A stretch of 57,027 nt of DNA, filler included, from Jimgerdemannia flammicorona (GCA_003990765.1; 2 parts of 2 records of this genome joined end to end with filler, not necessarily neighbours in it), one strand, 5' to 3'; numbered from the whole stretch's first letter, positions 10-57,027 are shown. The notes: generated by a model not told the origin, from the letters alone. Made by a program: numbers and translations.

Positions 10-1110
10 GCATTCCTATAGGCACTTAGTTATCATTCCGTTGGTTTGCTCAGTAGTCTGTATCAACTGTATAGATGAAGTTTTCGATGTCGCTGTTTTT
101 TCCACTGAATGTTGGGATTTGCAAGGTCTTGGTTGGCTTGTTCTGTTCAGCAATCTGTCCTACTATCCCTGCTAGTACTGCTAGCTGGGTAGTCAGTGCT
201 GTAATGTTGGTATCTACCATTGTGTTGACTATTGGTAGTGGGTCTGTTGGGGTAGATTCTCCTGAAGATTCTTCTGCTTAGTGGGGTTGTGGTGCTGTAT
301 GCCTTGGGGTTACTTGATTTCCAGATATCAAGTCAAAGAGTCCTGTGAGAGAGGATAAACCAAACCTCTGTATAGGTGGCTGAGTTGGTTCTGGGGTCTG
401 ATCTTCTTGACCTGTGGTTCCTTGGTAAATTTCTAGGCCTGCTGTTCCTAGTTGGCTATTGTCAGACTGGTAACCTGTAGAGTCTTCATCTGACTCCCTT
501 TTCTGATGAGATAGTGTGTCCTCATACTGGCTAGGTCCTTCAAAGAGGATATCAGTCTCTGGCTGGGTAGATGGGCCTGCTCCTTGTTCAGCAGTAGGAG
601 ATGGTTGGCCTGCTAGCTCATTCTCATATCTAGTTATGGCAGAGGTGTAGTATACAACTAGTCTGTAGTAGAGGGAGGTCTTGGTAGGGGTATGATGATA
701 TCTGTCAGAGGCAATCCACTCAGCAGCTGCTTCTCTTGCAGCAGGGGGTGTGATATAATCTAGAAAATCCTGGGTGGCTGCAGCAGTAGATTCTGGAGTC
801 CTAGTGGTTCCAATGTGTCCTCGGAGGAGTTTGTAGAACCTATGGTGGCTAACAATATTCCTAAGTCCTAAGTGGTATGTCCTAAAGGCCTGGTATAGAT
901 CCTTGTAAGCCTGGTCAATTATAAGCTGGTGGGTCCTAGGGTCTGTGGTTTCTTGATACCACCTGGTCCTAATGGTAAGGGCTTCTCTGGCTCTGGTTTG
1001 AGGATCTACAGTTGTTTCTGAGGGTTACTTCTGTCCAAGGTTGGTCTTGTTTCAACTTCAGGAGTATGTTCTTTGGTGTCTTCTTGGCTAGTAATCTGCT
1101 GCTACCAAGT
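10..1110 (-). mobile_element. Family-1 Ty3/Gypsy element, upstream tandem copy: PBS, leader frame and gag 5' part (truncated)
   Basis: Near-identical to 8233-9334. PBS complement ctgctacca at 1099-1107 lies next to the LTR. Gag ATG (MVDTNI) at 220. Confidence 0.9.
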
Positions 1111-6300: not shown

Positions 6301-8444
6301 CCTTCATGGGTCAGATTAACCTCGTTGGTTCTCCAGTTGATGTCTGGGTTGTGCTGGGTCAACCAGGCTTTTCCTAGGATGATGTCCTGTCCTGGGAGGT
6401 CTACAATGTTGAAGTCCAACTTCTCTTGATATTTGCCAATCTTGAGTAAGAGATCTTCACAGATCTTGGTCAGTGGTGCAGTCTTGCTATCACCAAAGAT
6501 AACACTTCTTCTTTCAGTAGCTGGTCTGCTTTGGGCTCCAATCCTCTTGGCAGTCTTGGTGCTGATGTAGTTTCTAGTAGCATCACTATCAAGCAAGACA
6601 TTGACATTCTGTCTGTGGATTTGGCCTGTGAACTTGATGCAACTGTCCTCCTTCTTAATGGTGTTGAGCTCTTCATCCTTATTGTTGTTGTCCCAATTGC
6701 TGTCAGTCTCCTCAAAGTCAGTTTCTCCCCATCCTTCACAAGGAGAGTTGTCTTGTTGGAGTTCCTCAGTCTGTTGGACTTAGTTTCTTTCAGAATTGAT
6801 TTTGAAATTCCTGAAGAAGCATGCATGGCATTCACTAACATGTTCCATACAGTATATTCGAATAGAATGAGGGTATTGTCCACATGGTACATAACCATCT
6901 GCAATTCTCTTATACCAGTTTTCATCATCTTCCTTCATGGTAGTGACCTTTTGACTGAGAGATTTGTTGGTTGATCCAAACCCTTCCTTGCCACAGTCTG
7001 TCTGGGAGAGTTCAGGGACTTCTTCAATGGTGAGATCTTGACAGATTTCTTCAATGATTGCTTGGGCAATCCTTTGGCCTGTTTTGACTTCAAATGATGT
7101 GTCTTCAAAATTTCGCAAGATAATGTGGATTTCACCAGTAAATCCTTGATCAACTACTCCTCCTCCTAGCCCAATGTTGAACTCTTTGGCTAGGCTGCTT
7201 TGCTCAGCAAGGTGGATGTATGTTCCTTTGGGAGCTTGTATTGCAATTTCTGTTTGCACTGTAGCATTGGTACTTGGTGGAATGGTGAGGTCTTGACTAC
7301 TGTAGAGGTCATAACCAGTATCAGTTAGGTGGGCCTTAGTGGGGATGGTAGCCTTGTACTATATCTTCTGTACTTTGATGACATTCTCAGAGTTCTTCTT
7401 TCCTGGACCTTCTCCAATGACAGTAATGTTCTGGTTACTGGGTTCACCTGATCTGTTTCTCTTCTCTGGGCATTTGACTGAGATGTGTCCTGCCTTCCTG
7501 CAGATGAAGTACAATATCTTTTCGCGGAGCTGCTTCTTTTCATCCTCAGTGGGAGGTCTGGGTCCTCTGGGGTTTTGCTGGTTCCTTTGATCATTCCTTT
7601 GATCATATCTTTGGTCATTCCTTTGATCATTTCTCCTGGTAGGATTTCTCCTATCTTGGTTATCCTTCTTGTGTTCTCGATTTCATGAGGCTTGTATAGC
7701 AAGGATTTCACAGGCTCTTCTTTGTACTTGGGCAAAACACCATGAATAGTGGGGACATTCTTGGGGAAGATCTTGTTTCTTGATCTTCTGGGTAAGCTAG
7801 TCTGGTAGGGCTGCAAAGAGATAGTTGGCTCTGGTACCATTGATGGCCAAATTGTTCTCCTGATAGGTAAGTCCAATGGTTTTGAGATAGGCATCCATTC
7901 TGGTAGCAAAGGTCTCTAGATCCTCTTTGCCATTCTTGTGGAACTTCATCTGGGACAGTTTGTTCTAAGTTTCTTGTATATAGGCCACATTTCAGAATTT
8001 AGTCAGTAGCAAGGCCTTGAGTCCTGGGCCTGCTTCATAGTTATCCCAACCTGGTCTATTATTGGTAGGTGCTTGTCCATTGACTTGAGGGTGGTTTTCC
8101 CAGATTACTGGATGTTGTTCCAAGGTTTGCCAGAATTTGGCTGCTGTTCCAGTGAAGAATATGGCTACTGTTTCTTCCTGTGCTGCTGATGTGGCAAACA
8201 GCTGTTGGAGGGTACTATTCTGGTTGTTGGTGAGCATTCCTATAGGTACTCAGTTGTCATTCCATTGGTTTGCTTAGTAGCCTGTGTCAACTACATTGAT
8301 GAAGTTTTCGATGTCACTGTTTTTTTTACTGAATGTTGGGATTCACAGAGTCTTGGTTGGTTTGTTCTATTCAGCAATCTGTCCTACTATCCCTGTTAGT
8401 GCTGCTAGCTGGGTAGTCAGTGCTGCAATGTTTGTATCTACTAT
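3364..8444 (-). pseudogene. gag-dUTPase-pol polyprotein pseudogene (family 1)
   Basis: Zinc knuckle (Y)FICRKAGHISVKC near 7470-7510; dUTPase ~6975-7340 (GGGVVDQGFTGEI, QRIAQ, GFGST); RT, RH, IN, chromodomain EEFEIEKVLDH. Many stops; ~108 bp RH deletion near 4905 relative to the 44700 copy. Confidence 0.92.
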
Positions 8445-9334
8445 TGTGTTGACTATTGGTAGTGGGCCTGTTGGGGTAGATTCTCCTAAAGATTGTTCTG
8501 CTTGGTGGGGTTGTGGTGCTGTATGACTTGGGGTTACTTGATTCCCAGATATCAAGTCAAAGAGTCCTGTGAGAGAGGGTAAACTGAACCTCTGTATAGG
8601 TGGCTGGGTTGGTTCTGGGGTCTGATCTTCTTGACCTATGGTTCCTTGATAAATTTCTAGGCCTGCTGTTCCTTGTTGGCTATCATCAGACTGGTAACCT
8701 ATAGAGTCTTCGTCTGACTCCCTTTCCTGATGAGATAGTGCATCCTCGTACTGGCTAGGTCCTTCAAAGAGGATATCAGTCTCTGGCTGAGTAGATGGGT
8801 CTGCTTCTTGTTCAGCAGTAGGAGATGGTTGGCCTGCTTGCTCATTCTCGTACCTGGTAATGGCAGAGGCATAGTATACAACTAGCCTGTCGTAGAGGGA
8901 GGTCTTGATAGAGGTATGATGATATCTGTCAGAGGCAATCCACTTGGCAGCTGCTTCTCTTACAGCAGGGGGTGTAATATAATCTAAAAAATCCTGGATG
9001 GCTATAGCAGTAGATTCTGGGGTCTTAGTGGTTCCAATGTATCCTTGGAGGAGTTCATAGAACCTATGGTGGCTAACAATATTCCTAAGTTCTGGGTGGT
9101 ATGTCCTAAAGGCCTGGTATAGATCCTTGTAAGTCTAGTCAATTACAAGCTGGTGGGTTCTTGGGTCTGTAGTTTCCTGGCACCACCTGGTCCTAATGGA
9201 AAGGGCTTCTCTGGCTCTGGTTTGAGGATCCACAGTTGATTCTGGGGGTTACTCCTGTCCAAGGTTGGTCTTGTTCCAACTTCAGGAGTATATTCTTTGG
9301 TACTTTCTTGGCTGGTAATCCACTGCTACTAAGT

Positions 9335-10079
9335 TGTAATAACTCTCACTTCTACCCCTCTCTTATCCTTTGGATAATTAGAGAAGTGGACTATTACTTA
9401 GGGACTTAGTATACAATGTGTACCAAGAAGCCTTCAGTTTGAGGAAGTACTCACTTATAAGTAGTTGTAGCAGCAGTGCCTTCTATTTCAAAGGTCTTGT
9501 TCTTTGCTGTGCACAGACTGAATTCACCTTGGAATTCAGGTTCAATGGGTTTACTTAAGTCTTTGGGGATTTATATACTGGTCTCAGTTCTGGCAGAAGT
9601 TAGCTAGGCTTCTGGAGTTTAGTCAGAAACACTAGAGTCACTTAGATGTCATTACTAAGACTCAGGAGAATGTATGTGTGGAGGGGGGACTTGATTCTTG
9701 TATCAAGGACTGAACTAAAACTGCTTTATTTTGGATGGAAACTGGGGGGTATTTATACAAGTTGGTCTGCGATTTCTGACTAAATATGAGTGACTAATTT
9801 GGTAACTATAATGAGGTTTGTGATCATGACCTTTGTCAGGTGGTTTTTGGCAAAAAACAACTTTGTGATCAGGACCTCAATTACTAGGCAATGATCAGCT
9901 GCTGTGGCAACAGTTGCTGCAGCTCCGATTGTTGGGGATAAGCTGGATATCGTTTTTTGCGTTCGTCACTCGCTATTCATATGTCGTGCTTCGTTCGTAT
10001 GATGACGTCATCGCCGCCGGGTCACGTGATCGCTCGTCTCGTCGCGTCCCATCTGTTCGCGCTCTTTCGTTCTATTACA
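9335..10079 (-). repeat. Family-1 5' LTR
   Basis: TG...CA ends, TATA at 9750-9757, ATGACGTCAT at 10002-10011, mutated PBS at 9323-9331. Confidence 0.93.
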
Positions 10080-10720
10080 ATCTGGTTCAAATCTGATTTG
10101 GATTAGTTTGTTTGAAGCACATCTATTATACTCTATAGTAAAATTTGAAATATTATTAGCAACTATATTTAATTCAACAATATCTCTAATATTACTGATA
10201 ATATCTGAATACTTTTATCTGAAGTTTTTGATAGAGATTATTATGCTCTTTTTTTTATAAGCCTCTATAATATCATTATGAATAGTATTAGCACTTGGAG
10301 TATATAAGTTAGGCTTGACAAGACCAAAGAGACTTCATAATGAAGGACTCTCAATAGCTATAAATGGTTGGGCATCATATATTATCCAGTAAATAAGTCA
10401 ATTTCAAAACTCCAGTATAGTATATGGCTGAATTGTTTTTCAGATGTGTGAGAGATATATTTTCAAATCTATATATACTAAAATAAGAGAGAGAACATCT
10501 ACTTACTACAGCTGGAATATCAATTTTACTTGGGGTTGCGAGCCCTTGGATGGAAGGGTCATCACGGATGGGATGGAAGGCAGCAGAGTTGTGTAGTGGT
10601 CTAACGTCAACGAAGCCATGGGGGAAAGAGTCAATTTATACTCCAGGCAATGTCGTCGTGCTGCAGTACGCCAATGACGGAACTTGATCCTCCATCCGAT
10701 TCGGAACCGCCGGAATCCCC
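10080..10720 (-). mobile_element. Decayed hAT-like DNA transposon 5' fragment
   Basis: Minus-strand translation of ~10240-10400, LIYWIIYDAQPFIAIESPSL*SLFGLVKPNLYTPSANTIHNDII, resembles the hAT transposase N-terminal dimerisation segment. Possible terminus GGGGATTCCGGCGGTTCCG near 10720. Confidence 0.55.
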
Positions 10721-37800: not shown

Positions 37801-40800
37801 ATTTTATAGTTCAAAAGAGCTCATGAATTGCAAGTTGGTAAGCCTATCAAATATTTCATCAATTCTGGATAGTGGGTAATAGTTCTTGATGGTCTGTTCA
37901 TTGAGGTCATGGTAATCAATATATATTCATAGGTCTCCTCCTTTCTTTACAACAAAGAGGACTGGGTGATATATTGGATCTGATGAATCCTTATTCTAGG
38001 AGTTTGTCAATTTCTTTCTTGAGTGCATCAATTTCTCTCAGAGATATATAGTAGATTGACTTAAAGGCTGGCTTGGCATCTGGGATGGTCTTGATGGTAT
38101 AGTCTACTGCTCATTTAGGAGGTAGGCCTTTCAGGAGTTTCTTCAGGAATATGTCTCAGAATTTCTAAAGTAGGGGTCTAATATGGCTGTTAACTTTGGA
38201 AAAGTCTTCTTCAGAGTTCTTAGGTTCTCCTTTGGATGGGCAGATAGAGATGGCAAAGAGAGGGCATTTCTTGGCCAATTTCTTGAGTTTTAGCTTGTTG
38301 ATGTGGGTGATCTTTGATCCAGGATTATTGGAACTAAGTGGGTCCTTTTCACCTTACAGTTTGAAGTTGTGATGTTCTTTCTTAATGGTCAGAGAATGGT
38401 TTACCCAATTGATCATAGGGTTCTCTTATTTTAACCATAAGGTTCCAAGGATGATTTCATTATCAGGAAGTGGTATGATCTGGAGGATAATATATACTTA
38501 GTAGTCACTAATTCAGAAGAGCAGATTGCAGACTTCCTTGCTAATGACATGAGAGGTTTCATCAGCTGTAGCAACTGCTTGAGTTTGTTGCACTGGAGAT
38601 GTCAGGACCTTGAGTCTGTTGGCTGTTTCTTCATTGATGAAGTTGCCTGAGGTACTACTGTCTATCCTAATCTTGACAGATGCTCAGTTGACAAAAACTT
38701 GAAGTGTAAGCAGTTTGTCTGATCTAATGGTAGTGATTTCAGTTGTAAGAGCTTTCCTTCTGATAGTTCTTCTTTGAGCTAGTTCATTGACACAAGAGAA
38801 GCAATCATCAATTATTCAGGAAGAGTACATTCTAATACCATAGGGGTATCAGCCACTGGGTACATATCTGTCTTTGATTTTCTTGTAGAATTATTCTTCC
38901 TTATTCATGGTAGGTTGGGCTGGAGCCTTGTTTGATGAGCCAAATCCTTTGGATCCTTGGATAGTGGGTAGTAGTTCAGAGACTTTCTTAACTATCAGAG
39001 TTGACTTGATTTTTTCAAATAGGATCTGGGCAATACAGAAACTGATGGAGATCTTGAAGAATATCCAACTGTGATTTCAGATGAGGACAATAATTTTACC
39101 TGTGTAATCTTCATCAATAACTCCTCCTTCTACTGAGAGTCCTTTTAATGTTAGGCTGCTGCAATAGCATATTCTTCCAATATGTCCTTCAGGGATTTGG
39201 ATGCTGATTCCTGTATAGACTTGCTTGACTTCTTGATTAGAAACTGTAGCTTCTTTGGCTACATATAGGTCATATCCAGCTGCCTTTTGACTTCCTTTGG
39301 TTGGGGCCTTGGCAGTTTACCTTAACTTGACAAAGTCCAGTGTTCTGGTAGTCAGGTTATTGAGGTAGTGCAGAGTAGTAATAGTTGCTCATATTGCTGT
39401 TCAGGGTTTTCAGTTGAGGCAGGCACTGGCTATGTATTCTGTCTTTCAGCAATAGAAGCATGCTCCACTTCTTTGAAGTTCATTCCTTTCTCCTTCAGTG
39501 AGTTTCTTGAAGGTACTCAGCTGGGTGGATTCATGATTTCGGAGTGTCCAAGAGGTAGATGTAGAGGGAGCTTGAGATGCTTTATACTTGGGTTCTTCTT
39601 TCTTAGTCTAAGTCTTTTTCTGGTTATTGAATTGTCTTCAGGGCAGAATTGGTCCAGCTATCAGAATTTGCTTGACCATAGTCTTGATTCTTGCCAGGCA
39701 CCATTGTTGGTAATCATAACCAACTGGGCATCCTTGTTCTTAAATTTTCCTTGTAAGCCATTCAGGTAGTATATCAAATAAGTGGTCTGCTCTTGTACCA
39801 TTTCATGTTTTATCATTGGCAATATATTCTAGGCCAACAGTGTTCAGAAGTGACTCAAGTTTTGTACAGAAGGTTTCAAATTTCTCCTTGCTATGTATAT
39901 ATATCAAATTTGAGGTTGCAGAGTTTAACTCAAGATTTGGTGATCATAGTTTCACTGTAGTATTGTACAATTATGAGTTATTTCAGTCCAGAGGCTGCAG
40001 GATGGGCTCTATATTCTGAGGTATTGTTTGCTACATTTTGGACAACTACTGCAGATTGAGTATTCCATGTGTGGGGGTTTTCAGGAAGGGTTTGTCACCA
40101 TTCTTCAGTGGGTCCTCAGAAGAATGTAACAACTCAACAGACATAGGCTGTAGTAGTAGCAAAGAGTTATTCCAGAGTATAGTCTTGATTGTTTATCAGA
40201 AGGCAGTCAGCAACTTACTCATTGGTCCATTGATTGGCTTCAAAGTTAGTACTAACTATACTAATAAAGCTTTAGACTTCTTGTGCAGTACCATTGAAGA
40301 TAGGTAGGCTCAGATTTTTGGTAGGTCAGGCCTGTTCAGCTAAGGCAGTAATGGTTGCTACTATTATTGCTACCTAGGCTATAAGGTCTAGAATCTGTTA
40401 GTTTGCCATATTGTTTACTAGAGGTAGTTAGACTGCTGATAGTAGTGTTACCAGTACTACTTGAGGTACTGGTGCAGAATGTGAGGGTGTTCTTTGAGTC
40501 TGTGTAAGTTGCTATAGTAGTAGTTATAGATCTGGAGTAAGAGCTTGATAAATAGCTATTTGTTGCTGTATAGGTGTGTTCTGTCCTGATGGAGGTATAT
40601 CTCCTTTGGTAGTATATCTGAGATCGAATTCACTGAGATACTCCTCCTCCTCTTCAGCTTGGTCCCTATATAGTTGGGTTTGCTCAGCATCAAAGTAGAC
40701 AGAGTCAGTTATATATCTGATTTCAGATAGACTTAATTCAAAGTCAAGTTCTGGTTCAGTATTGGTTTCAGGTTTAGGTAGAGCTGTAGCAGAGCCTACT

Positions 40801-40917
40801 TCTGATTCAGGATCAGGTTGTTGATAAAGGGTTTCTCTTACTTCTTCCTTAAGAATATAGTGGGCCTTGCTATTCTGGAATCAGTAGTATAATGCTGTCT
40901 TGGTCCTGATATAGTGA
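32852..40917 (-). mobile_element. Family-2 chromovirus, heavily mutated, inserted in the LINE and interrupted in its leader
   Basis: Collinear with 48535-56675 in reverse; gag ATG at 40409, pol stop at 35284. Confidence 0.93.
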
Positions 40918-45500: not shown

Positions 45501-45985
45501 GACACAGATATTGAGAAGTGGTCCAAATCATTTATCAGATACTAGAATATTGCTGGTACATTAGTCAAACCAAAAGGCATAACTTGGAACTAGTAGTGTC
45601 CAAACTATATTTGGAAAACTGTCTTTTCAATGTCCTTCTCATCAATGAGGATCTGATGATAGCCATTTCACAAGTCTAGTAGAGAAAAGGTCTTGGCCTT
45701 GAAGATTTGGTGCAACAACTCATCAATCCTAGGCAAGGCATACCAGTTCTTGATGGTGATCTTGTTGAGGGCTCTGTAGTCAATACACATTTGCAGAGAG
45801 ACATTCTTCTTCTTGATAAACAGAATGGGGGCTCCAAATGGAGAGCAGCTGAGTTCAATATATCCTTAAGCCAGTAGTTTAGTTAACTCATCCTTGAGGG
45901 TCTTGAGTTCAGGTTGGGCTAGTTGGTAGATACTCTTATATAGCAGTTCAGATCCTAGAATGTGATCAATTCTACATTGGATTTG

Positions 45986-48082
45986 TGTAAGCACACAACC
46001 TCCAAGCTACCGGAATTACATGTCACCCTCTGAACAAAGCCACTGAAATCACACGCGAGCTCCGAACAAATCTGGAAATCACCTGCTTGATCACGAAGCT
46101 GAGTCAAACCAAAGTCACAGCGTACAAAGCTGAGTCAATACAAAGTCACAGAACACAAGATCTACACAAACGGAACCTTACCAATCAGGACCAAATGCAT
46201 ATATACTGAGCACCGAGACATGTCAAATCAGAGAACCAAAACAAACAACAACTACAACTTCCAAACATACAAACATGACCACTGAGATCTACAACCGCAT
46301 CCGCGCTGACATTTGGAATGCCATTGTCAACCGAGCCACACCCCCTCTGCCCCTCATAAATATCCATAGCCTGGCACCCCTCTACTTCGTGGAAGCCCAA
46401 TGGAACGCCCTGAACATGCTTAGTGAGGCCCACTGAATCGGACAAATCTCAAGCTACTACCAGATCAGCCGCCTCCTGGAAGACATGGTCGAACACCACC
46501 ATGATACAGACATTACCCAGATGTCTTAACACCAGAAGCTCATCGCCCGCAAATATCAAGAACTCTTCTATGAGTACAACACCTTTATCCCCCGCCTCCG
46601 AGTTACTACCAGCGAAATGGTTGCTACCCTGTCCTATGGGCAAATCGATGATATGATACAAGAACTCAACCATAAGTACCTCGAGTATATCGAAACCACA
46701 GACAGAACCTTCCTGCACCCTGATGACCATATCCTGCAAATGCCTCAAGTCGGATATGCCATGAAAGACGTCTATGATATAATCCACTTCGATGAAGATG
46801 AAGCAGAAGACAATGATCCCTCTGACGCCGATATGACCTCTAGCCAAGGATCTCTGCCAACCCTGATCACTCTGCCAACCCTGATCACTCTGCCAACCTT
46901 GCTGATGAACTTACAACAGTTCATAACTGCATATGAGACTTATTGGGACAATGACCACTGGTACGAATACCAACCTGCATTCACCCCCGATTACTTCAAT
47001 TACAATGAAGAGACCGGAGAACACAATCTGTACCTTCAGACAACCCTCGAGATTGAACCAACCACTCCACCACCTGAGTATGAGCAACATGAACCACAGC
47101 CGCCAGCATACTATAACCCCGCAACTCATAGTGCTATAACCTATAGAAGGTACGCAGACAGCGAATCCGATGAAAGTGAAGACAGTATACCCATCCTTCA
47201 CCCACCAACACCTTATCCAGCATACGAAACAGATGATGCTATCCTGTGGGATGGAGATGAAGTCCCAATGTATTACTACCTCAGCCAACAAGGAGAAGTA
47301 ATCCGCGAATCATTATTCCTAGACAACTACTTTATCAGGGATGATACAATCGATAGTGATGTCATCGAGGAATACCCAGACAGCACCTAAACCTATAAAT
47401 AGTCTAGCAGTCATAGTATAGATAGATTAGCCTTGTACAATGTGACTGTGAACTGACTCAGCAGTCAGATGATCTCTTGACATGTCAGATCACACTTGTA
47501 CTACATGACTACATTCTGACTCAGCAAAGCACTTAGTGCTACATCCATATCTAGCCTAGTCCAGATAGCCCCTTACTAGTATAAATACCCCCTCTCCCAG
47601 ACCTCAGACCTCAGAATCTCAGACTTGAAGACTTGAACAATCCGAACACAACTCCTGAGCACTTCCCCACAATATCCCTTTACACAACTACTCCTAGTAT
47701 AGCAATATCATGAATAGCAAATAAACCTATTCCATAACCCACAAACCACTCTTAAGTAAATCTGCTCTCTGTTAGGTCCTACTCCTAACCCTGTCACGAA
47801 ATTTCCTAATTGGGTATTGTCTGCAGCGATACGCCAATTCAACTAAGCTGGTCTTAGTTTCTTGAACTTCCTGAAATATGGAAATCCTGAACATCCAGAA
47901 CTAGTCCAGAAAAGGACTTTGGTTGAGACGTCAACCCAATCTTGAAATCAATAAGCGTAGAGGATGTACTCCATACGAAATTGATCTTGACCATAAGAAA
48001 ATGGTCTTCCAGAATATCCAGAACCTCCAGAAAACCTTTCCAGAACTACGTAATGGTTACCCTAAAAAGTAACCCTCTTACA
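45986..48082 (+). repeat. Family-2 5' LTR (2097 bp)
   Basis: TGTAAG...CTTACA; TATA at 47580-47587. Confidence 0.95.
46275..47390 (+). pseudogene. LTR(U3)-encoded accessory ORF (~371 aa)
   Basis: ATG 46275 (MTTEIYNRIRADIW) is in frame with track ORF 46617-47390; only two stops (TGA, TAA), each one C>T from CGA/CAA. Confidence 0.8.
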
Positions 48083-48085
48083 ACT

Positions 48086-48099
48086 TGGTAGCAGCGGAT
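48086..48099 (+). other. Primer binding site, initiator tRNA-Met type
   Basis: TGGTAGCAGCGGAT 3 nt after the LTR; complementary to a ...CUGCUACCA tRNA 3' end; same core in family 1. Confidence 0.8.
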
Positions 48100-49044
48100 T
48101 ACAATCCAATTCCGCTTCAAGACGCTTTCTCACCCCGCTACAAACCTCTCTGCAAATTTCTATAAGTTGGTATAAAGCCCAACCTCTGAACTGGAATTTA
48201 TCCTGAACCATCTGACAATCTGGAGAGAATTGAACCTGACGTACAAGGACAATTTGACCTCCACACCTGCAACAAGTGGGACAAACTTCATTCTAAGAAA
48301 GAAATACTCCAGTTAAATCAGCAAATAGGTGAAACCCTATTCACCGAACTCCTTGCACTACACCCAGCAAGTTACGATGAAGAAGGTCTTATTGAAGCCT
48401 TCTTTACTCTTCTCAACAAGAGTTTTGTCAGCTCCACAAATCCGAGTGACCTAGGACAACCAGCAGCAGTCTTTCTAGCCTTAGTTTCTCATGAAGCCCA
48501 AGCCTCTGTAGCCAAGTGGCTCAACTCTACCAACTTTCACTGCACCAGGACCAAGACCGCATTATACTACCGATTCCAGAACAGCAAGGCTCACCATATT
48601 CTTAAGGAAGAAGCAAGAGAAACCCTTCATCAACTACCTGACCCCGAATCTGAAGCAGGCCCTGCTACAACCCTACCTGAATCTGAAACCAATACCGAAC
48701 CTGAACTTGACTTTGAATTAAGTCCATCTGAAATCAGATATACAACTGATTCTGTCTACTTTGACGCTGAGCAAACCCAATTACACGGGGACCAAACCGA
48801 AGAAGAGAAGGAGTATCTCACTGAATTCGATCCTGGATATACCACCGAAGGAGACACACACCCATCAGGACAGAATACACCTACACAGCAACAAACAGCT
48901 ATCTATCAAGCCCTCACTTCAGATCCACAACTACTACTTCAGCAACTTACACAGACCCAAAGAACTCCATCACACTCTGCACCAGTACCTCAAGCAGTAC
49001 CAGTAACACCACTACCAGCAGTCCAACCACCTCCAGCAATCAAC

Positions 49045-52000
49045 ATGGCGAACCAACAGATTCTAGACCTCACAGCCCAAGTAGTTATAATGGCAGCAAC
49101 CATTACTGCCTTAGCTGAACAGACCCAACCTACCAAAAATCTGAGCCTACCTACCTTCAATGGTACTACACAAGAAGTCCAAAGCTTCATTAGTGTAGTT
49201 GACACCAACTTCGAAGCCAATCAATGGACCAATGAACGAGTTGCTGACTGCGTTCTGACAAACAATCAAGACCACACCCTGGAACAACTCTTTGCTACAA
49301 CTACAGCCTATGTCCGCTGAGTTGTTACATTCTTCCAAGGACCTACCGAAGAATGGTAGCGAACCCTTCCTGAAAAACCCCTCACATGGGATACCCGACC
49401 TGCAGTAATTGCTCAGAATGCAGCAAACAATGTCCCAGGATATGGAGCCCATCCTGCAGCCCCTGGACTCAAACAACTCATGATTGCTCAATATCACAGC
49501 GAAACCATGATTGTCGAATCTCGAGTAAAACTCCACAACCTCAAATTTGATGTACATGGCAAAGAAGAATTTGAAACCTTCTGTACAAAACTCAAGTCAC
49601 TCCTGAACACTGTTGGCCTAGGATACATTGCCAATGATGAAGTACGAAATGGTACAAGAGCAGACCATTTACATATTCGATGCCCTGCCTGAATGGCTTA
49701 CTAGAAAAATCCGAGAACAAGGCCGCCCAGTTGGTTGTGACCACCAACAATGGTGCCTGGCAAGAATCAAGACTATGGTCAAGCGAATCCTAACAGCTGG
49801 ACCAATCCTGCCCCGAAGGCAATTCAACAACAACAAAAAGACTTGGACCAAGAAAGAAGAACCCAAGCATGAAGCATTCCGAGCTCCCTCCACATCCACC
49901 TCTTGGACACCCAGAAATCATGAACCCGCCCAGCCAAGTACCTTCAAGAAACTAACTGAAGGCGAAAGGAATGAACTTCGAAGAAGCAGAGCATGCTTCT
50001 ATTGCCGAAAGACAGGACACATGGCCAGTGCCTGCCCTAACCGAAAACCCCGAACAGCAACACGAGCAACTGTTACCACTCTGTACCACCTCAACAACCT
50101 GACCACCAGAACACTAGACTTTGTCAAGTTAAGACAAACTGCTAAGGCCCCAACCAAAGGAAGTCAAAAAGCAGCCAGATATGACCTGTATGCTGCCGAA
50201 GAAGCTACAGTCTCCAACCGAGAAGTCAAACAAGTCTACACAGGAATTAGTATCCAAATCCCTGAAGGACATGTTGGAAGAATATGCTGTCGCAGCAGCC
50301 TAGCATTAAAAGGACTCTCAGTAGAAGGAGGAGTCATTGACGAGGATTACACAAGCAAAATTATTATCCTCATCCGAAACCACAGTTGGACACCCTTCAA
50401 GATCCCTATTGGCTTCTGCATCACCCAGATCCTGTTCGAAAAAATTGAGTCAACCCTGACAGTCAAGGAGGTCTCTGAACTACTACCCACCATCCGAGGA
50501 TCCAAAGGATTTGGCTCATCAAACAAGGCCCCAGCCCAACCTACTGTGAGCAAAGAAGAACAATTCTACAAGAAGATCGAAGATGGATATGTACCAAGTG
50601 GCCGATGCCCTCATGGTATTGGAATGTACTCTTCCCGAATGATTGATGATTGCTTCTCTTGTGTCAACGAACTGGCTCAAAGAAGAACCAACAGAAGAAA
50701 GGCTCCTACAACTGAAATCACCACCATTGGATCAGACAAACTGCTCACCCTTAAGGCTTTTGTCAACGGAGCACCTGTCAAGATTATGATAGACAGTGGT
50801 GCCTCAGACAACTTCATCAATGAGGAAACAGCCAACAGACTCAAGGTCTTCACCTCCCCAGTACAGCAAACTCAAGCAGTTGCTACAGCTGATGGAACCT
50901 CGCATATTATTAGCAAAGAAGTCCGCAATCTACCCTTCCGAATTGGTGACTACCGAGTACATGTCACCCTCCAAATCATATCACTTCCGGATAATAAAAT
51001 CATCCTTGGGACTCTATGGTTAAAACGAGAAAACCCTATGATCGATTGGGTAAACCATTCTCTGACCATCAAGAAAGGACGCCACAACTTCAAACTACAA
51101 GGTGAAAAGGACCCACTCAACTCTAGTGACCCTGGACCAAAGATCACCCACATCAACAAACTACAACTCAAGAAATTGGCCAAAAAATACCCTCTCTTCG
51201 CTATCTCCATCCGCCCATCCAAAGGAGAACCCGAGAACTCCAAAGAGGATTTTTCCAAAGTTAACAGCCATGTCAGACCACTACTCCAGAAATTCCGAGA
51301 CATATTCCCAAAGAAGCTCCCGAAAGGCCTACCTCCCAAACGAGCAGTAGATCATGCCATCAAGACTATCCCAGATGCCAAACCAGCCTTCAAGTCAATC
51401 TACCACATGTCTCCGAGAGAAATTGATGTACTCAAGAAGGAAATCGACGAACTCCTAGAACAAGGATTCATCAGACCCAGCATATCACCCTATGGTGCAC
51501 CAGTCCTCTTTGTTGTCAAGAAAGGAGGAGACCTACGAATGTGCATTGACTACCACGATCTCAACGAACAAACCATCAAGAACTGTTGCCCACTACCGAG
51601 GATCGATGAAATATTCGATAGACTTACCAACCCACAATTCATGAGCTCTTTTGACCTGCGAAATGGTTACTGGCAAATTGCCATGAAAGAAGAAGACATC
51701 TACAAGACAGCTTTCCGAACTCACTATGGACACTTTGAGTTCCTGGTTATGTCCTTTGGCTTAACTAATGCTCCAGCAACCTTCCAGACACTGATGAATA
51801 CCATTCTGCATCCATACCTGGACAAATTCGTTGTTGTCTACATTGACGACATCCTAGTTTTCAGCAAAACCCTGGAGGAACATCTTGAACACCTTGAACT
51901 AGTACTACTGAAACTCCGAGAAAACAGACTCTTTGCAAAACTCAGCAAGTGCGAATTTCTCCTGAAAGAAATTTAATTCCTTGGACACATTGTCACTCCG

Positions 52001-54178
52001 AATGGAATCAAAGTGGACACAAGCAAAATCTCTGTAATCAAAGATTGGCCCAGACCGAAGAAGCTGAAAGACCTCCAGTCATTCCTGGGATTAGCAAACT
52101 ATTACAGGCGATTTGTGGCCAACTTTGCTAAAATCGCTACTGCCCTCACCCAAATGACCAAGCACAACAAGAAATAAGAACAACTCTGGACTATGAAACA
52201 AGAGAAGAACTTCAACAATCTTGTACATTGGGGACCCGAACAAGACACCACCTTTCAAGCACTGAAAGATGCCCTGATAACCACACCAGTACTTTAAGCA
52301 GCAAACTCTGCCCTACCATATGAAGTCACCACTGATGCCTCTGACCTAGCTCTTGGAGCAGTGCTCATGCAAGAAGGACACCCTGTGGCCTATCACTCCC
52401 GCAAGTTCAACGATGCCGAAATCAACTACGCAACTCACGAGAAGGAAATGCTAGCCATCGTAGACACCCTGATCAAATGGCGACCATACTTAGAAGGAGC
52501 ACACTTCACTGTATTAACTGACCACAAGTCACTAGTCAACATCAAGACACAGGCTACCCTTTCTCGAAAGCAAGCTAGATGGATGAAAGTCCTCACCAAC
52601 TTTGACTACAAAATCCAGTACCGCTCTGGCAAGAAAAATACTGTTGCCGATGCAATCTCCAGACCACCAATCGAAGAGGTTATCCAAACTCTGACCCTGG
52701 TTACCAACACTATCATGGAACAAATCATCGCAGCATGTGTTGATGATAAAGAAGCTCAAGCACTCTGAGAAATCCTGAATAATGATGATGCTGACAAGTA
52801 TACCCGGTACAATCAATACCAACTCAAGGACGATACTATCTACTACAAGGACAGATTGTATGTTCTAAACAACCGGGACCTCCGAAGGACTATCCTATTT
52901 GAATGTCATAATGTCCCTACAGCTGGACATTTAGGATTTGACAAATGCTATGAAGTTATCTCCCGAAACTTCTATTGGCCCTACATGGCAGATTAGCTCA
53001 AAACCTACATCACTTCCTGTGATGCCTGCCAACGAAACAAGTCCTCAACACTAGCAAAACCCGGCTTACTTCACCCTATTCCAGTACCATCCGCAAATTG
53101 GGAACAAATCTCTATAGACTTCATTGTACAACTACTCCGAACCAAGAACGGAAAAGATGCAATTGTTGTCTTTGTGGACTATCTCAGCAAACAAGCCTAC
53201 TTTGTGCCTACTACCACTACTGCAACAGCACCAGACATAGCCACACTCTTGTTTGACAACATCTTCCGCTATCATGGTCTCCCCAAGATCATTGTTAGTG
53301 ACCGAGATCCGAAATTCACCAGCCACTTTTGGAAAGCCCTCCATGCACACCTTGGAACGAAACTTGCACTATCCACAGCCTTTCACCCTAAAACTGATGG
53401 CCAAACCGAAAGAATGAACCGAACTCTAGAACAAATGCTAAGAAACTATATCTCCTACAGACAAGATGATTGGCATGAACATCTCACTGCAGTCGAGTTT
53501 ACCTATAACAATAGCAAGCAAGCCTCTCTTGGAATGACCCCATTCTTCGCCAACACTGGACAAAATCCAAACACCCCTTTAACACTTGTCCGAACCACTG
53601 AAGAACCCTCCACAGTTGAAGCTGTTGAAGAATTCTTACTCCGAATGCGCAATCTAAGCCAGATCGCAATCAAGAATTTATCACGAGCTCAAGAACAACA
53701 GTTACAGTATGTTAACCAACACTGCCGAGAAGAAACTTTTGATATTGGAGAAAAAGTCCTACTAGACATCAGAGGATACCGAGTTGACAACCTCAAGCAC
53801 AGACCATCCACAAAGCTGAACAGCAAGTTCATTGGACCATTTGAAGTCATTGCACAAGTCTCTCCAACCTCCTACAAACTGGCACTACCAGACACCATTA
53901 AGATTCACCCAGTCTTTAATGTTCAACATCTAAAGCGATACAATGACAATGATGATGAGCTATTTCCAAATCGGACCACCAAACCACCTGCACCTGTCAT
54001 CATTAATGACCAAGAAGAGTATGAAGTTGAACAAATCCTCAACAAACGTGGAAACAAGAACCATCCTGAGTACCTTGTCAAATGGAAAGGTTATCCGATC
54101 CACGATACAACCTGGGAACCCAAGACCAATCTTCAAAATGCTACCAACCTAGTTCAGGAATATGATTCCTTGAACTAG
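49045..54178 (+). pseudogene. gag-dUTPase-PR-RT-RH-IN-chromodomain polyprotein (ancestrally one ORF)
   Basis: [14 protein letters not shown], dUTPase ~50120-50520, IDSGA, YIDD, HPKTDGQTER, GPF, chromodomain EEYEVEQIL...YLVKWKGY...TWEP. A 4-nt insertion near 49672 (absent in the minus copy) and a few stops break the frame. Confidence 0.95.
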
Positions 54179-54603: not shown

Positions 54604-56675
54604 TGTAAGTGCATAACCTCCAAGCCACCGAAATCACATGTCACCCTTGGAACAAGCCACTGAAATCACACGTGACCTCTGAACAAATCTGGAAATCACC
54701 TGCTTGATCACAAAGCTGAGTCAAACCGAAGTTACAGCACACAAAGCTGAGTCAATACAAAGTCACAGAACATAAGATTTACACAAACAGAATCTTATCA
54801 ATCAGGACCAGATGTATATATACCGAGCACTGAGATGCGTCGAATCAGAGAACCAAAACAAATAACAACCACAACTTCCAAACACACAAACATGACCACT
54901 GAGATCTACAACCACATCCGTGCTGACATTTGGAATACCATTGTCAACCGAGCCACACCCCCTCTGCCCCTCATGAATAGCCATAGCCTGGCACCCCTCT
55001 ACTTTGTGGAAGCCCGATGGAATGCCCTGAACATACTTAGTGAGGCCCACTGAATCGGACAAATCTCAAGCTACTACCAGATCGGCTGCCTCCTGGAAGA
55101 TATGGTTGAACACCACCATGATACAGACATTACCCAGATGTTTCAACACCAGAAGCTCATCACCCGCAAACATCGAGAACTCTTCTATGAGTACAACACC
55201 TTTATTCCCTGCCTTCGAGTCACTACCAGCGAAATGGTTGCTACCCTGTCCTATGACCAAATCGATGACATGATACAAGAACTCAACCACAAGTACCTTG
55301 AGTACGTCCAGACCACAGATAGAACCTTTCTGCACCCTGATGACTATATCCTGCAAATGCCCCAAGTTGGATATGCTATGAAGGATGTCTATGATATAAT
55401 CCACTTCGACAAAGATGAAGTAGAAGACAATGATCTCTCTGATGCCAATATGATCTCTAGCCAAGGATCTCTGCCAACCCTGATCACACCACCAAACTTG
55501 CCAATGAACTTGCAACAGTTCATAACTGCATATGAGACTTATTGGGACAATGACCACTAGCATGAATACCAACCCGCATTCACCCCCGACTACTTCAACT
55601 ACAATGAAGAAATCAGAGAACACAACCTGTACCTCCAGATAACCCTCAAGATCGAACCAACCACTCTACCACCTGAGTGCGAGCGACATGAACCACAGCT
55701 ACCAGCTTACTACAATCCTGCAACTCATAGTACTGTAACCTATAGAAGGTATGCAGACAGTGAATCCGATGAAAGTGAAGACAATACACCCATCCTTCGC
55801 CCACCAATACCTTATCCAGCCTACGAGACAGACGATGCTATCCTATGAGATGGAGACAAAGTTCCAATATACTATTACCTCAGTAAACAAGGAGAAGTAA
55901 TCCGCGAACTATTATTCCTAGATGACTACTTCATCAGAGATGATGCAATCGATGGTGATGTCATCGAAGACTACCCAGACAGTGCCTAAACTCATAAATA
56001 GCCTAGCAGTTATAGTATAGTTAGATTAGCCTTGTATGACGTGACTGTGAACTGACTCAGCAGTCAGACAATCTTCTGATATATCAGATCACACTTGTAC
56101 TACGTGACTGCATTCCGACTCAGCAAAGCACTTAGTGCTACACCTATATTTAGCATAGTCCAGATAGCCCCTCACTAGTATAAATACCCCCTCCCCCAGA
56201 CCTCAGAATCTCAGACTTAAACAGACTCGAACACACAAGAACATTCCTGAATACTTCCCCATAATACCCCTTCACACAACTATTCCTAGTATAGCAATAT
56301 CATAAATAGCAAATAAACCTATTCCATAACTCACAAATCACTCTTAAGTAAATCTGCTCCCTGTTAGGTCCCACTCCTAACTCTGTCACGAAATTTCCTA
56401 ATTGGGTATTGTCTGCAGCGATATGCCAATTCGACTAAGCTGGTCTTAGTTTTTTGAACTTCCTGAAATACAGAAAATCCTGAACATCCAGAACTAGTCC
56501 GAAAAAGGACTTTGGTTGAGACATCAACCGAATCTTGAAATCAATAAGCGTAGAGGATGTACTCCATACGAAATTGATCTTGACCATAAGAAAACAATCT
56601 TCCAGAATATCCAGAACCTCCAGAAAACCCTTCCAGAACTATGTAACAGTTACCCTAAAAAGCAACCCTCTTACA
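54604..56675 (+). repeat. Family-2 3' LTR (2072 bp) with U3 ORF copy at 54892-55989
   Basis: TGTAAG...CTTACA; the 25 bp length difference from the 5' LTR is accounted for by 18-bp and 7-bp duplications in the latter. Confidence 0.95.
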
Positions 56676-57027
56676 ACTAGGTTCAGTGGTCTGTGATTCT
56701 TGGTGTTGAATTATTTTTACCTAAGTGCAGAGAATTTGGTAGTGAAGATGAGATTTTCTTTGGTTGATATATGTAATATATATCTCTTATAGTTCATAAA
56801 AACCTTGGCTCAGTAGTAGCTATCTCTGGAGAGATAATTCAGAAAATGTTCACTTGTAGCTTTAATAGATTCTTTAGTATATTTCTCATAAAAATAACTA
56901 CTGATTAATCTTTCAAATTCTTTTCTGATGTCTTTGATATGATCAACTTCTTTGTTGAGTATTATAAATATGTTAAATACTTTTTATATAGTCTTATTAT
57001 TGAGTTTGTCAAATTTCTCTTAGTTGA

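Follow-up and report, generated by a model that had tools for sequence, protein, structure and literature searches.

An ATG-less open frame fused in frame to gag in fungal-type Ty3/Gypsy chromoviruses of Jimgerdemannia flammicorona: a candidate non-AUG-initiated extension of Gag

Introduction

In an LTR retrotransposon of Jimgerdemannia flammicorona, the stretch between the primer binding site (PBS) and gag contains a long stop-free frame that has no ATG of its own and reads directly into the gag ATG. This arrangement raises two questions: does the frame encode a part of Gag and, if so, at which codon would its translation begin? The analysis was made on a window of 57,027 nt, filler included, consisting of 2 parts of 2 records of this genome (GCA_003990765.1) joined together. 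A preliminary description of the locus had suggested an N-terminally extended Gag produced by non-AUG initiation, with the PBS as one possible start, or by splicing.

Retrotransposon families and copies in the window

The window is a nest of LTR retrotransposons in which two families were recognised by self-BLAST and Pfam. The family-2 element is a Ty3/Gypsy chromovirus (Metaviridae) of fungal type with a dUTPase. The copy that carries the frame in question, F2A, comprises the following parts:

45986..48082, plus strand: 5' LTR of family 2, 2.1 kb, TG...CA (self-BLAST repeat 45986-48089 vs 54604-56682)
48085..48099, plus strand: PBS-like TTGGTAGCAGCGGAT, 2 nt past the LTR end and common to family 1
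49045..54175, plus strand: gag-pol (Pfam scan and ORF list), broken by several stops in F2A
54604-56675, plus strand: 3' LTR of family 2 (self-BLAST)

The LTR of family 2 is truly 2.1 kb long: the TGTAAG that follows the polypurine tract (AAGAAGGGGAGAG) at 54604 recurs identically at the start of the repeat, at 45986. The 5' LTR contains a TATAAATA box at 47580-47587 and an AATAAA at about 47719, and the 3' ends of the LTRs read ...CTCTTACA in all four LTR copies. No tRNA genes are found within the window. The domains of gag-pol are arranged in the order CCHC knuckle, dUTPase, aspartic protease, RT, integrase, Tf2-type SH3 and chromodomain. Their Pfam E-values are 1.3e-30 for dUTPase, 2.3e-12 for aspartic protease, 5.3e-31 for RVT_1, 1.2e-8 for rve, 3.2e-18 for SH3_Tf2-1 and 5.2e-17 for Chromo; zf-CCHC (E 5.2e-4, 20.4 bits) lies slightly below the cut-off of 20.8 bits, and RNase H has no Pfam match in the ORFs scanned. 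Within 49622-51973 (plus strand), the dUTPase domain of the polyprotein thus follows the CCHC knuckle and precedes the protease.

Family 1 lies on the minus strand as a tandem LTR-internal-LTR-internal arrangement (1-1881 and 8233-10083). Self-BLAST delimits an LTR at 10083-9335, an internal part, an LTR at 1881-1111 and the beginning of a second tandem unit, which leaves the window at its start; the family-1 copy in this second unit is designated F1b and the other F1a. A further copy of family 2, F2C (40917-32852, minus strand; self-BLAST), is 5'-truncated and begins within the region upstream of gag. At the junction 40917/40918 (minus strand) the end of a family-1 LTR adjoins the start of F2C in the motif block of that region, at the equivalent of 48537, which is either a chimera truncated at its 5' end or the outcome of template switching. 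The copies in the window are decayed, with transitions accounting for 1025 of 1133, 143 of 158 and 184 of 211 pairwise differences (87-90%). This kind of decay, the affinity to dUTPase chromoviruses known from fungi and the prominence of soil metagenomes among the public sequencing runs that best match the stretch would all accord with a fungal host.

Another open frame, of 286 codons with 7 Met, is located in U3 inside the family-2 LTR (46530-47387, plus strand), its end lying some 190 nt short of the TATA box. It is also found at 55147-55986 (plus strand) and 34302-33481 (minus strand), and so occurs in 3 of 3 long LTR copies, with protein identities of 83% and 75%. It is absent from family 1 and possesses no relative in Pfam or the ESM Atlas. 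A coding frame within the LTR is unusual for a retrotransposon, and this one may be an accessory gene.

An open frame without ATG between the primer binding site and gag

The frame upstream of gag in F2A and its counterparts in the other copies, referred to here as leaders, are as follows:

48190..49044, plus strand: 285-codon open frame lacking ATG and continuous in frame with gag (stop-to-stop frame, shuffles, protein comparison)
8445..9248, minus strand: family-1 leader frame in F1a, with a private stop at 9137, GUG as candidate start codon (9233-9231) and ATA where gag would start (8444-8442)
221..1024, minus strand: family-1 leader frame in F1b, with one private stop (280), GTA where F1a has the candidate GUG, and the gag ATG at 220-218
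40410..40917, minus strand: leader part of F2C, equivalent to 48537-49044, with four stops and the gag ATG at 40409-40407

The F2A frame is sited between the PBS and gag of the family-2 element. From stop to stop (48190-49320) it comprises 376 codons, of which the first 285 contain neither an in-frame ATG nor a stop and lead into the ATG at 49045; on this point the frame scan agrees with the preliminary description. The equivalent frame that had been claimed for family 1 is likewise recovered at 9248-8445 and 1024-221 (minus strand), where each copy is interrupted by one private stop only. The part of the leader at 48190-48536 is represented by a single family-2 copy in the window, F2A.

A stretch of this kind could be untranslated: it might be what remains of a former domain of gag, or it might act as RNA, for instance in packaging or dimerisation. 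That it is open could then be a by-product of base composition, as the coding strand is poor in T and G. Composition was assessed with mononucleotide shuffles: an open frame of such length occurs in 0 of 5000, against 3.9% for an ATG-free frame alone. The remaining two frames of 48190-49044 hold 10 and 23 stops.

Protein-coding character of the leader

The similarity between the leaders of the two families lies at the protein level and is specific to one frame. In BLASTP, the family-1 and family-2 leaders match only when their two open frames are compared (E 2.4e-10; 221 aa with 27% identity); the 8 other frame pairs give E-values of 0.30-2.1. No nucleotide match between families 1 and 2 is obtained by self-BLAST at 1e-20. 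The motif VAKWLNSTNFHCTRTKTALYYRF (48508-48576), which had been singled out as shared, aligns with the family-1 motif.

Two database proteins extend the comparison, which comprises these two and the two families. P0002 (261 aa, E 4.5e-8), obtained by profile-free HMMER from 1.84 billion representatives, belongs to a third lineage and extends from the conserved block across the linker to the N-terminus of gag. P0003, obtained by a word-index search with alignment, is an unbroken 552-aa ORF of family-1 type that runs from the leader into gag on a contig of 3481 nt and shows 87-90% identity to the two family-1 copies of the window. It is the sole match of the alignment query at near lengths in the protein word index, which yielded no further relatives with the F2A leader plus gag at near lengths or with the alignment at longer lengths. 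In contig collections, the protein alignment query gave 334 pattern matches among metagenome contigs, and 107 and 34 pattern matches were found among viral and genome contigs, respectively, with 0 confirmed in each case; a 25-nt invariant LTR word had 0 matches among metagenome contigs.

One further protein, P0001 (889 aa, E 2.8e-17), was set aside as non-homologous, its match consisting of the short motif GETLFTELLAL via 11 tandem repeats. The peptide concerned, IGETLFTELLALHPASYDEEG (48319-48390, plus strand), matches the 11-fold tandem repeat GDTLFSELLALNGEASKDDY... in P0001, a likeness that is probably due to chance.

Identities at the three codon positions were used in place of dN/dS, because within-family differences represent post-insertion decay and between-family synonymous sites are saturated. 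Between the families, identities at positions 1, 2 and 3 are 0.43, 0.49 and 0.39 in the leader compared with 0.56, 0.66 and 0.38 in gag, and with shifted-frame controls that are not clean these values suggest a weak codon-position signal in the leader.

The protein-coding nature of the leader frame is well supported, as the frame-specific protein similarity, the unbroken relative and the confident fold described below are taken together, despite this weak codon-position signal. The weakness of that signal and the absence of relatives from Pfam, PDB and Atlas speak for an untranslated leader. Against it stand a similarity that is confined to protein and to one frame, a frame that stays open in independent lineages, P0003 included, and a confident predicted fold. 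As for an RNA element, Rfam gives no match at E <= 0.1 in 45900-49400, and no unusual folding energy is seen in the segments tested. We consider an untranslated leader very improbable.

A predicted six-helix domain and an acidic linker

Two parts can be distinguished within the extension:

48235..48630, plus strand: predicted six-helix domain (AlphaFold2; helices at model residues 6-137), which includes the motif block 48508-48576
48640..49044, plus strand: acidic Pro/Gln/Ser/Thr-rich linker, predicted to be disordered (composition; pLDDT in the full-length model)

The AlphaFold2 model of 48220-48660, that is the N-terminal 147 residues, has a mean pLDDT of 79 and a pTM of 0.73, obtained from only 5 sequences. 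The full-length model is poor (pLDDT 39), and its linker falls below 50 from residue 146. As modelled, the extension consists of an orphan six-helix domain and, after it, an acidic Pro/Gln-rich linker of about 135 residues. The acidic/Pro/Gln character earlier ascribed to the linker is confirmed by its composition, residues 151-285 containing 17% D+E, 13% P, 11% Q and 21% S+T. No relatives of the six-helix domain were found in Pfam, PDB sequences or the ESM Atlas. As regards a possible likeness to the retroviral matrix (MA) domain, Foldseek searches of PDB and BFVD with the domain model gave no match at E <= 1e-3, and the best Z of the domain model in VIA-align wide, 4.7, is under the level that is meaningful for helical bundles. 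Judged by eye from the translation and the model, the extension possesses no signal peptide or membrane anchor, consisting of amphipathic helices and the acidic linker without a long hydrophobic stretch.

The linker motif TPSHSAP (48964-48984, plus strand) is conserved across all four lineages in the alignments. In the form TPSH(S/T)(A/N)P it is retained a short way upstream of the gag Met in all four, the family-1 equivalent lying about 25 codons before the gag Met. As a matter of speculation, this motif could be cleaved by the protease or resemble a late domain.

Depletion of ATG in the leader

In-frame ATG codons number 0 in 285, 0 in 268 and 0 in 268 codons of the leaders, compared with 15 in 784 and 4 in 393 codons of the pol ORFs. 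P0003 likewise has no Met from its first residue until the gag Met. The depletion extends to any frame. In the 855 nt of the F2A leader there are 2 ATGs, where dinucleotide shuffles give 8.5 (fraction at or below the observed value, 0.003), a density of 2.3/kb compared with 20.7/kb in gag-pol, and the family-1 leaders contain 5 and 4 against 9.4 and 8.2 in dinucleotide shuffles (0.02 each). ATGs common to F2A and F2C number 0 in 508 nt of leader and 64 in 5131 nt of gag-pol. When codons are shuffled, 6.7 out-of-frame ATGs are expected in the F2A leader and 2 are present (0.017), and the pol ORFs lie above expectation; the family-1 copies as they stand are not significantly depleted by this measure (0.198, 0.136).

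The 9 ATGs of the two family-1 copies are distributed over 8 sites, of which 1 is common to both; at each of the other 7, a single copy has ATG and its counterpart reads ACA or ACG. Many sites that differ between copies in this way (ATG versus ACA/ACG) are encountered both at 47960-48055 (plus strand) and in the family-1 leaders. Many ATGs of the window copies are therefore regarded as decay products, as such sites fit an ACG (CpG) decaying in both ways. Two out-of-frame ATGs are retained in the F2A leader, at 48377 (25-codon uORF) and 48491 (6-codon uORF), and the one ATG common to the family-1 leaders has A at -3. The leader is AUG-poor, not AUG-free, and its depletion covers all three frames.

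Candidate start codons and the upstream boundary

The points at which translation of the frame could begin, and the gag AUG into which it runs, are as follows:

48163..48189, plus strand: last two in-frame stops, TAA 48163 and TGA 48187, which bound the open frame upstream
48220..48222, plus strand: candidate non-AUG start CUG, context aatCUGg, with A at -3 and G at +4; codon 11 of the frame
49045..49047, plus strand: gag AUG, optimal context aacAUGg (alignments)

The family-1 counterpart of the CUG is GTG at 9233-9231 (minus strand), context actGTGg, which is codon 6 of the F1a frame. The two align without a gap (AAT CTG GAG vs ACT GTG GAT), and in this comparison of two families each is in strong context and unique in its leader. 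In-frame codons of the pattern A..[C/G]TG G number 1 in 284 in the F2A leader and 1 in 267 in the F1a leader, compared with 3 in 1263 in the other F2A coding frames, this class of CUG/GUG codons, defined by A at -3 together with G at +4, having been chosen after the sites had been seen. The first helix of the AlphaFold2 model begins 6 residues after the CUG. No stable hairpin above shuffles follows the candidate codons in segments of about 90 nt (z -0.99, 0.04 and -0.17).

The preliminary description placed the start further upstream, either at the AAC-TTG-G of the PBS or, after a few C>T reversions, in a frame that continues through the PBS into U5. Neither is supported, because in both families the PBS is cut off from the frame by in-frame stops. 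In family 2 the roughly 630 nt before 48190 contain 12 stops in this frame, and the four LTR copies of the window visibly differ at just one of them, 48070; the density in family 1 is similar. The last two stops before the family-1 frame (9284/1060 and 9251/1027) are common to both copies. As a weak argument, the 40 of 348 metagenome-contig differences listed include 48147 and 48159 and do not include the stops at 48163 and 48187.

An AUG might also be supplied by splicing, with an AUG-bearing R/U5 exon joined to the frame near its 5' end. Long leaders of retroelements are often spliced, and family 1 possesses a CAG shortly before the GUG region (CCCCAG|AATCAACTGTGG). In family 2, however, the homologous place lacks a corresponding YAG acceptor, and the AUGs of U5 are mostly private ACG>ATG changes or heads of uORFs of 4-6 codons. 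Moreover, the open frame begins sharply after the shared stops and the predicted fold begins right after the CUG, so that splicing appears highly improbable. None of the public runs listed as containing the stretch is recorded as RNA. No splice joint into the leader was present in four contig runs (two from soil metagenomes, one unclassified and one tentatively taken as RNA), which are silent on splicing and expression; the tentative RNA run covers mainly 47692-48081 and the leader barely. The only joint in the four runs is a 63-nt skip within the LTR, in one low-depth contig. Of the earlier proposal, the AUG-less N-terminal extension of Gag itself stands on sequence grounds (similarity, P0003, predicted fold, ATG depletion and the CUG/GUG pair), while the PBS start does not hold and splicing is unsupported.

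Initiation at an ordinary AUG is a further explanation: intact master copies would have ATG at or near the CUG/GUG position, the long ORF would simply be a long gag, and the ATG would have been lost by decay. P0003, the sole unbroken relative, does open with M exactly on the GUG position, and all window copies are heavily mutated. That initial M may be a GTG written as M by a gene caller of bacterial style or a true ATG, and fits both. The loss itself is awkward, since to derive the GTG and GTA of family 1 and the CTG of family 2 from ATG requires A>G or A>C at the first base, unlike the C>T/G>A changes that dominate the decay; among the 40 of 348 metagenome-contig rows listed there is no majority alternative at 48220, a weak argument. 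An efficient upstream AUG would also leave unexplained the purge of ATG from three frames of the leader and not from gag-pol, as well as the retention of the downstream Met and its context. At the gag Met position, Met is found in F2A, F2C, F1b and P0003, and Ile in F1a (ATA) and P0002 (known as protein only). Both families have their gag AUG in an optimal context, which is aacATGg in family 2 and acaATGg in family 1. An ordinary AUG start is on balance unlikely.

Proposed translation of long and short Gag

According to the reading that we favour, 40S subunits would scan the genomic RNA from the cap, and a minority would start at the near-cognate codon in optimal context, CUG 48220 in family 2 or GUG 9233 in family 1, to yield a long Gag. 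The remaining subunits would scan about 825 nt of nearly AUG-free leader and start at the gag AUG (49045), giving ordinary Gag and Gag-Pol. Leaky scanning to the gag AUG is favoured because AUG depletion in all frames, ending at a conserved AUG of optimal context, is what it predicts. What is directly observed is the open frame, its protein conservation, the scarcity of AUG and the placement and surroundings of the CUG/GUG codons; from this we infer that these codons are used, that both isoforms are made and any ratio between them. Non-AUG initiation at CUG/GUG combined with leaky scanning to produce long and short Gag is, on this sequence evidence, somewhat more probable than the contrary.

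A simpler variant would have all Gag begin at the CUG or GUG, with ATG 49045 as an internal Met and a single isoform. The evidence for coding and for the candidate codons serves this variant equally well. Near-cognate starts are, however, inefficient: in extracts of the cited papers, ribosome density in the glyco-Gag extension of MLV is 6.7% of that in gag (PMC5778647), and the AUU of RTBV captures about 10% of ribosomes (PMC5902531). Depletion of AUG in all frames and the conserved optimal-context AUG at the end of the leader are also predictions of leaky scanning rather than of exclusive non-AUG initiation, which we regard as quite unlikely.

Extended to the group as a whole, the two-isoform reading would describe a clade of fungal-type chromoviruses that make two Gag isoforms from one RNA, in which CUG or GUG initiation adds the orphan domain and the TPSH(S/T)AP linker and an AUG-purged leader of about 0.8 kb passes the other ribosomes to the gag AUG. 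The chances of this wider formulation are evenly balanced.

Comparison with known systems

The extension of MLV glyco-Gag has 88 codons, and that of the present elements, with about 275 codons, is about three times longer. It also differs in its content, a helical domain and an acidic linker without signal peptide or anchor by eye, and in its bearer, a Ty3/Gypsy chromovirus here and a retrovirus there. As no signal or anchor is seen by eye in the extension, the likeness to glyco-Gag concerns translation only and not targeting. In both cases the upstream frame runs unbroken into the gag AUG (gPr80gag in MLV; here also in P0003). As presented in the extract consulted, MLV glyco-Gag starts at accCUGg and gammaretrovirus extensions are generally without AUG (PMC5778647). 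The aatCUGg of family 2 is a CUG in similarly strong context, whose use here is a candidate one; the extension is AUG-poor in both; and the production of long and short Gag from one RNA by leaky scanning in MLV is proposed here (PMC5778647).

A second parallel is offered by RTBV, again in extract, whose ORF I starts at AUU and is followed by about 900 nt without AUG that are passed by leaky scanning (PMC5902531). Both are reverse-transcribing elements with a long AUG-poor stretch between a non-AUG start, a candidate in the present case, and a downstream AUG. In RTBV, however, the ORF proteins are separate and entry is by ribosome shunt, whereas here the frame is fused to gag. Near-cognate codons flanked by A at -3 and by G at +4 also serve filamentous fungi as starts for N-terminal extensions of cellular proteins, for example in Neurospora cpc-1, according to the extract of the report cited (PMC5487733). 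The present codons resemble these in being near-cognate codons of A-3/G+4 context in frame with the main AUG and without a stop in between. The fungal cases are host genes with regulatory uORFs, whereas the present one is a mobile element with a predicted folded domain.

Chromoviruses carrying dUTPase have been reported from Postia, Phanerochaete and Tuber (PMC2864245), and share with the present element their Ty3/Gypsy affiliation, the chromodomain and the dUTPase within the polyprotein. They differ in that no coding leader or AUG-less gag extension is described for them in the extract of that report (PMC2864245).

Implications for retrotransposon Gag

A search of one collection of papers, by the titles and abstracts listed, returned none that describes such an extension in an LTR retrotransposon, and the leader as read from its sequence would represent a known translational logic in a setting for which that material holds no description. 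Gag of LTR retrotransposons is usually annotated from the first AUG, and about 275 conserved, foldable codons upstream of it escape ORF finders here. If the CUG/GUG start is true, the logic of non-AUG initiation and leaky scanning known from gammaretroviruses and plant pararetroviruses extends to fungal-type Ty3/Gypsy elements, an orphan N-terminal Gag domain is added for study, and long "5' UTRs" of retrotransposons may conceal coding sequence. If two isoforms are made as proposed, these elements would parallel, among retrotransposons, both glyco-Gag and the leaky scanning of RTBV, and the balance between the isoforms could serve to adjust the assembly of particles or the number of copies.
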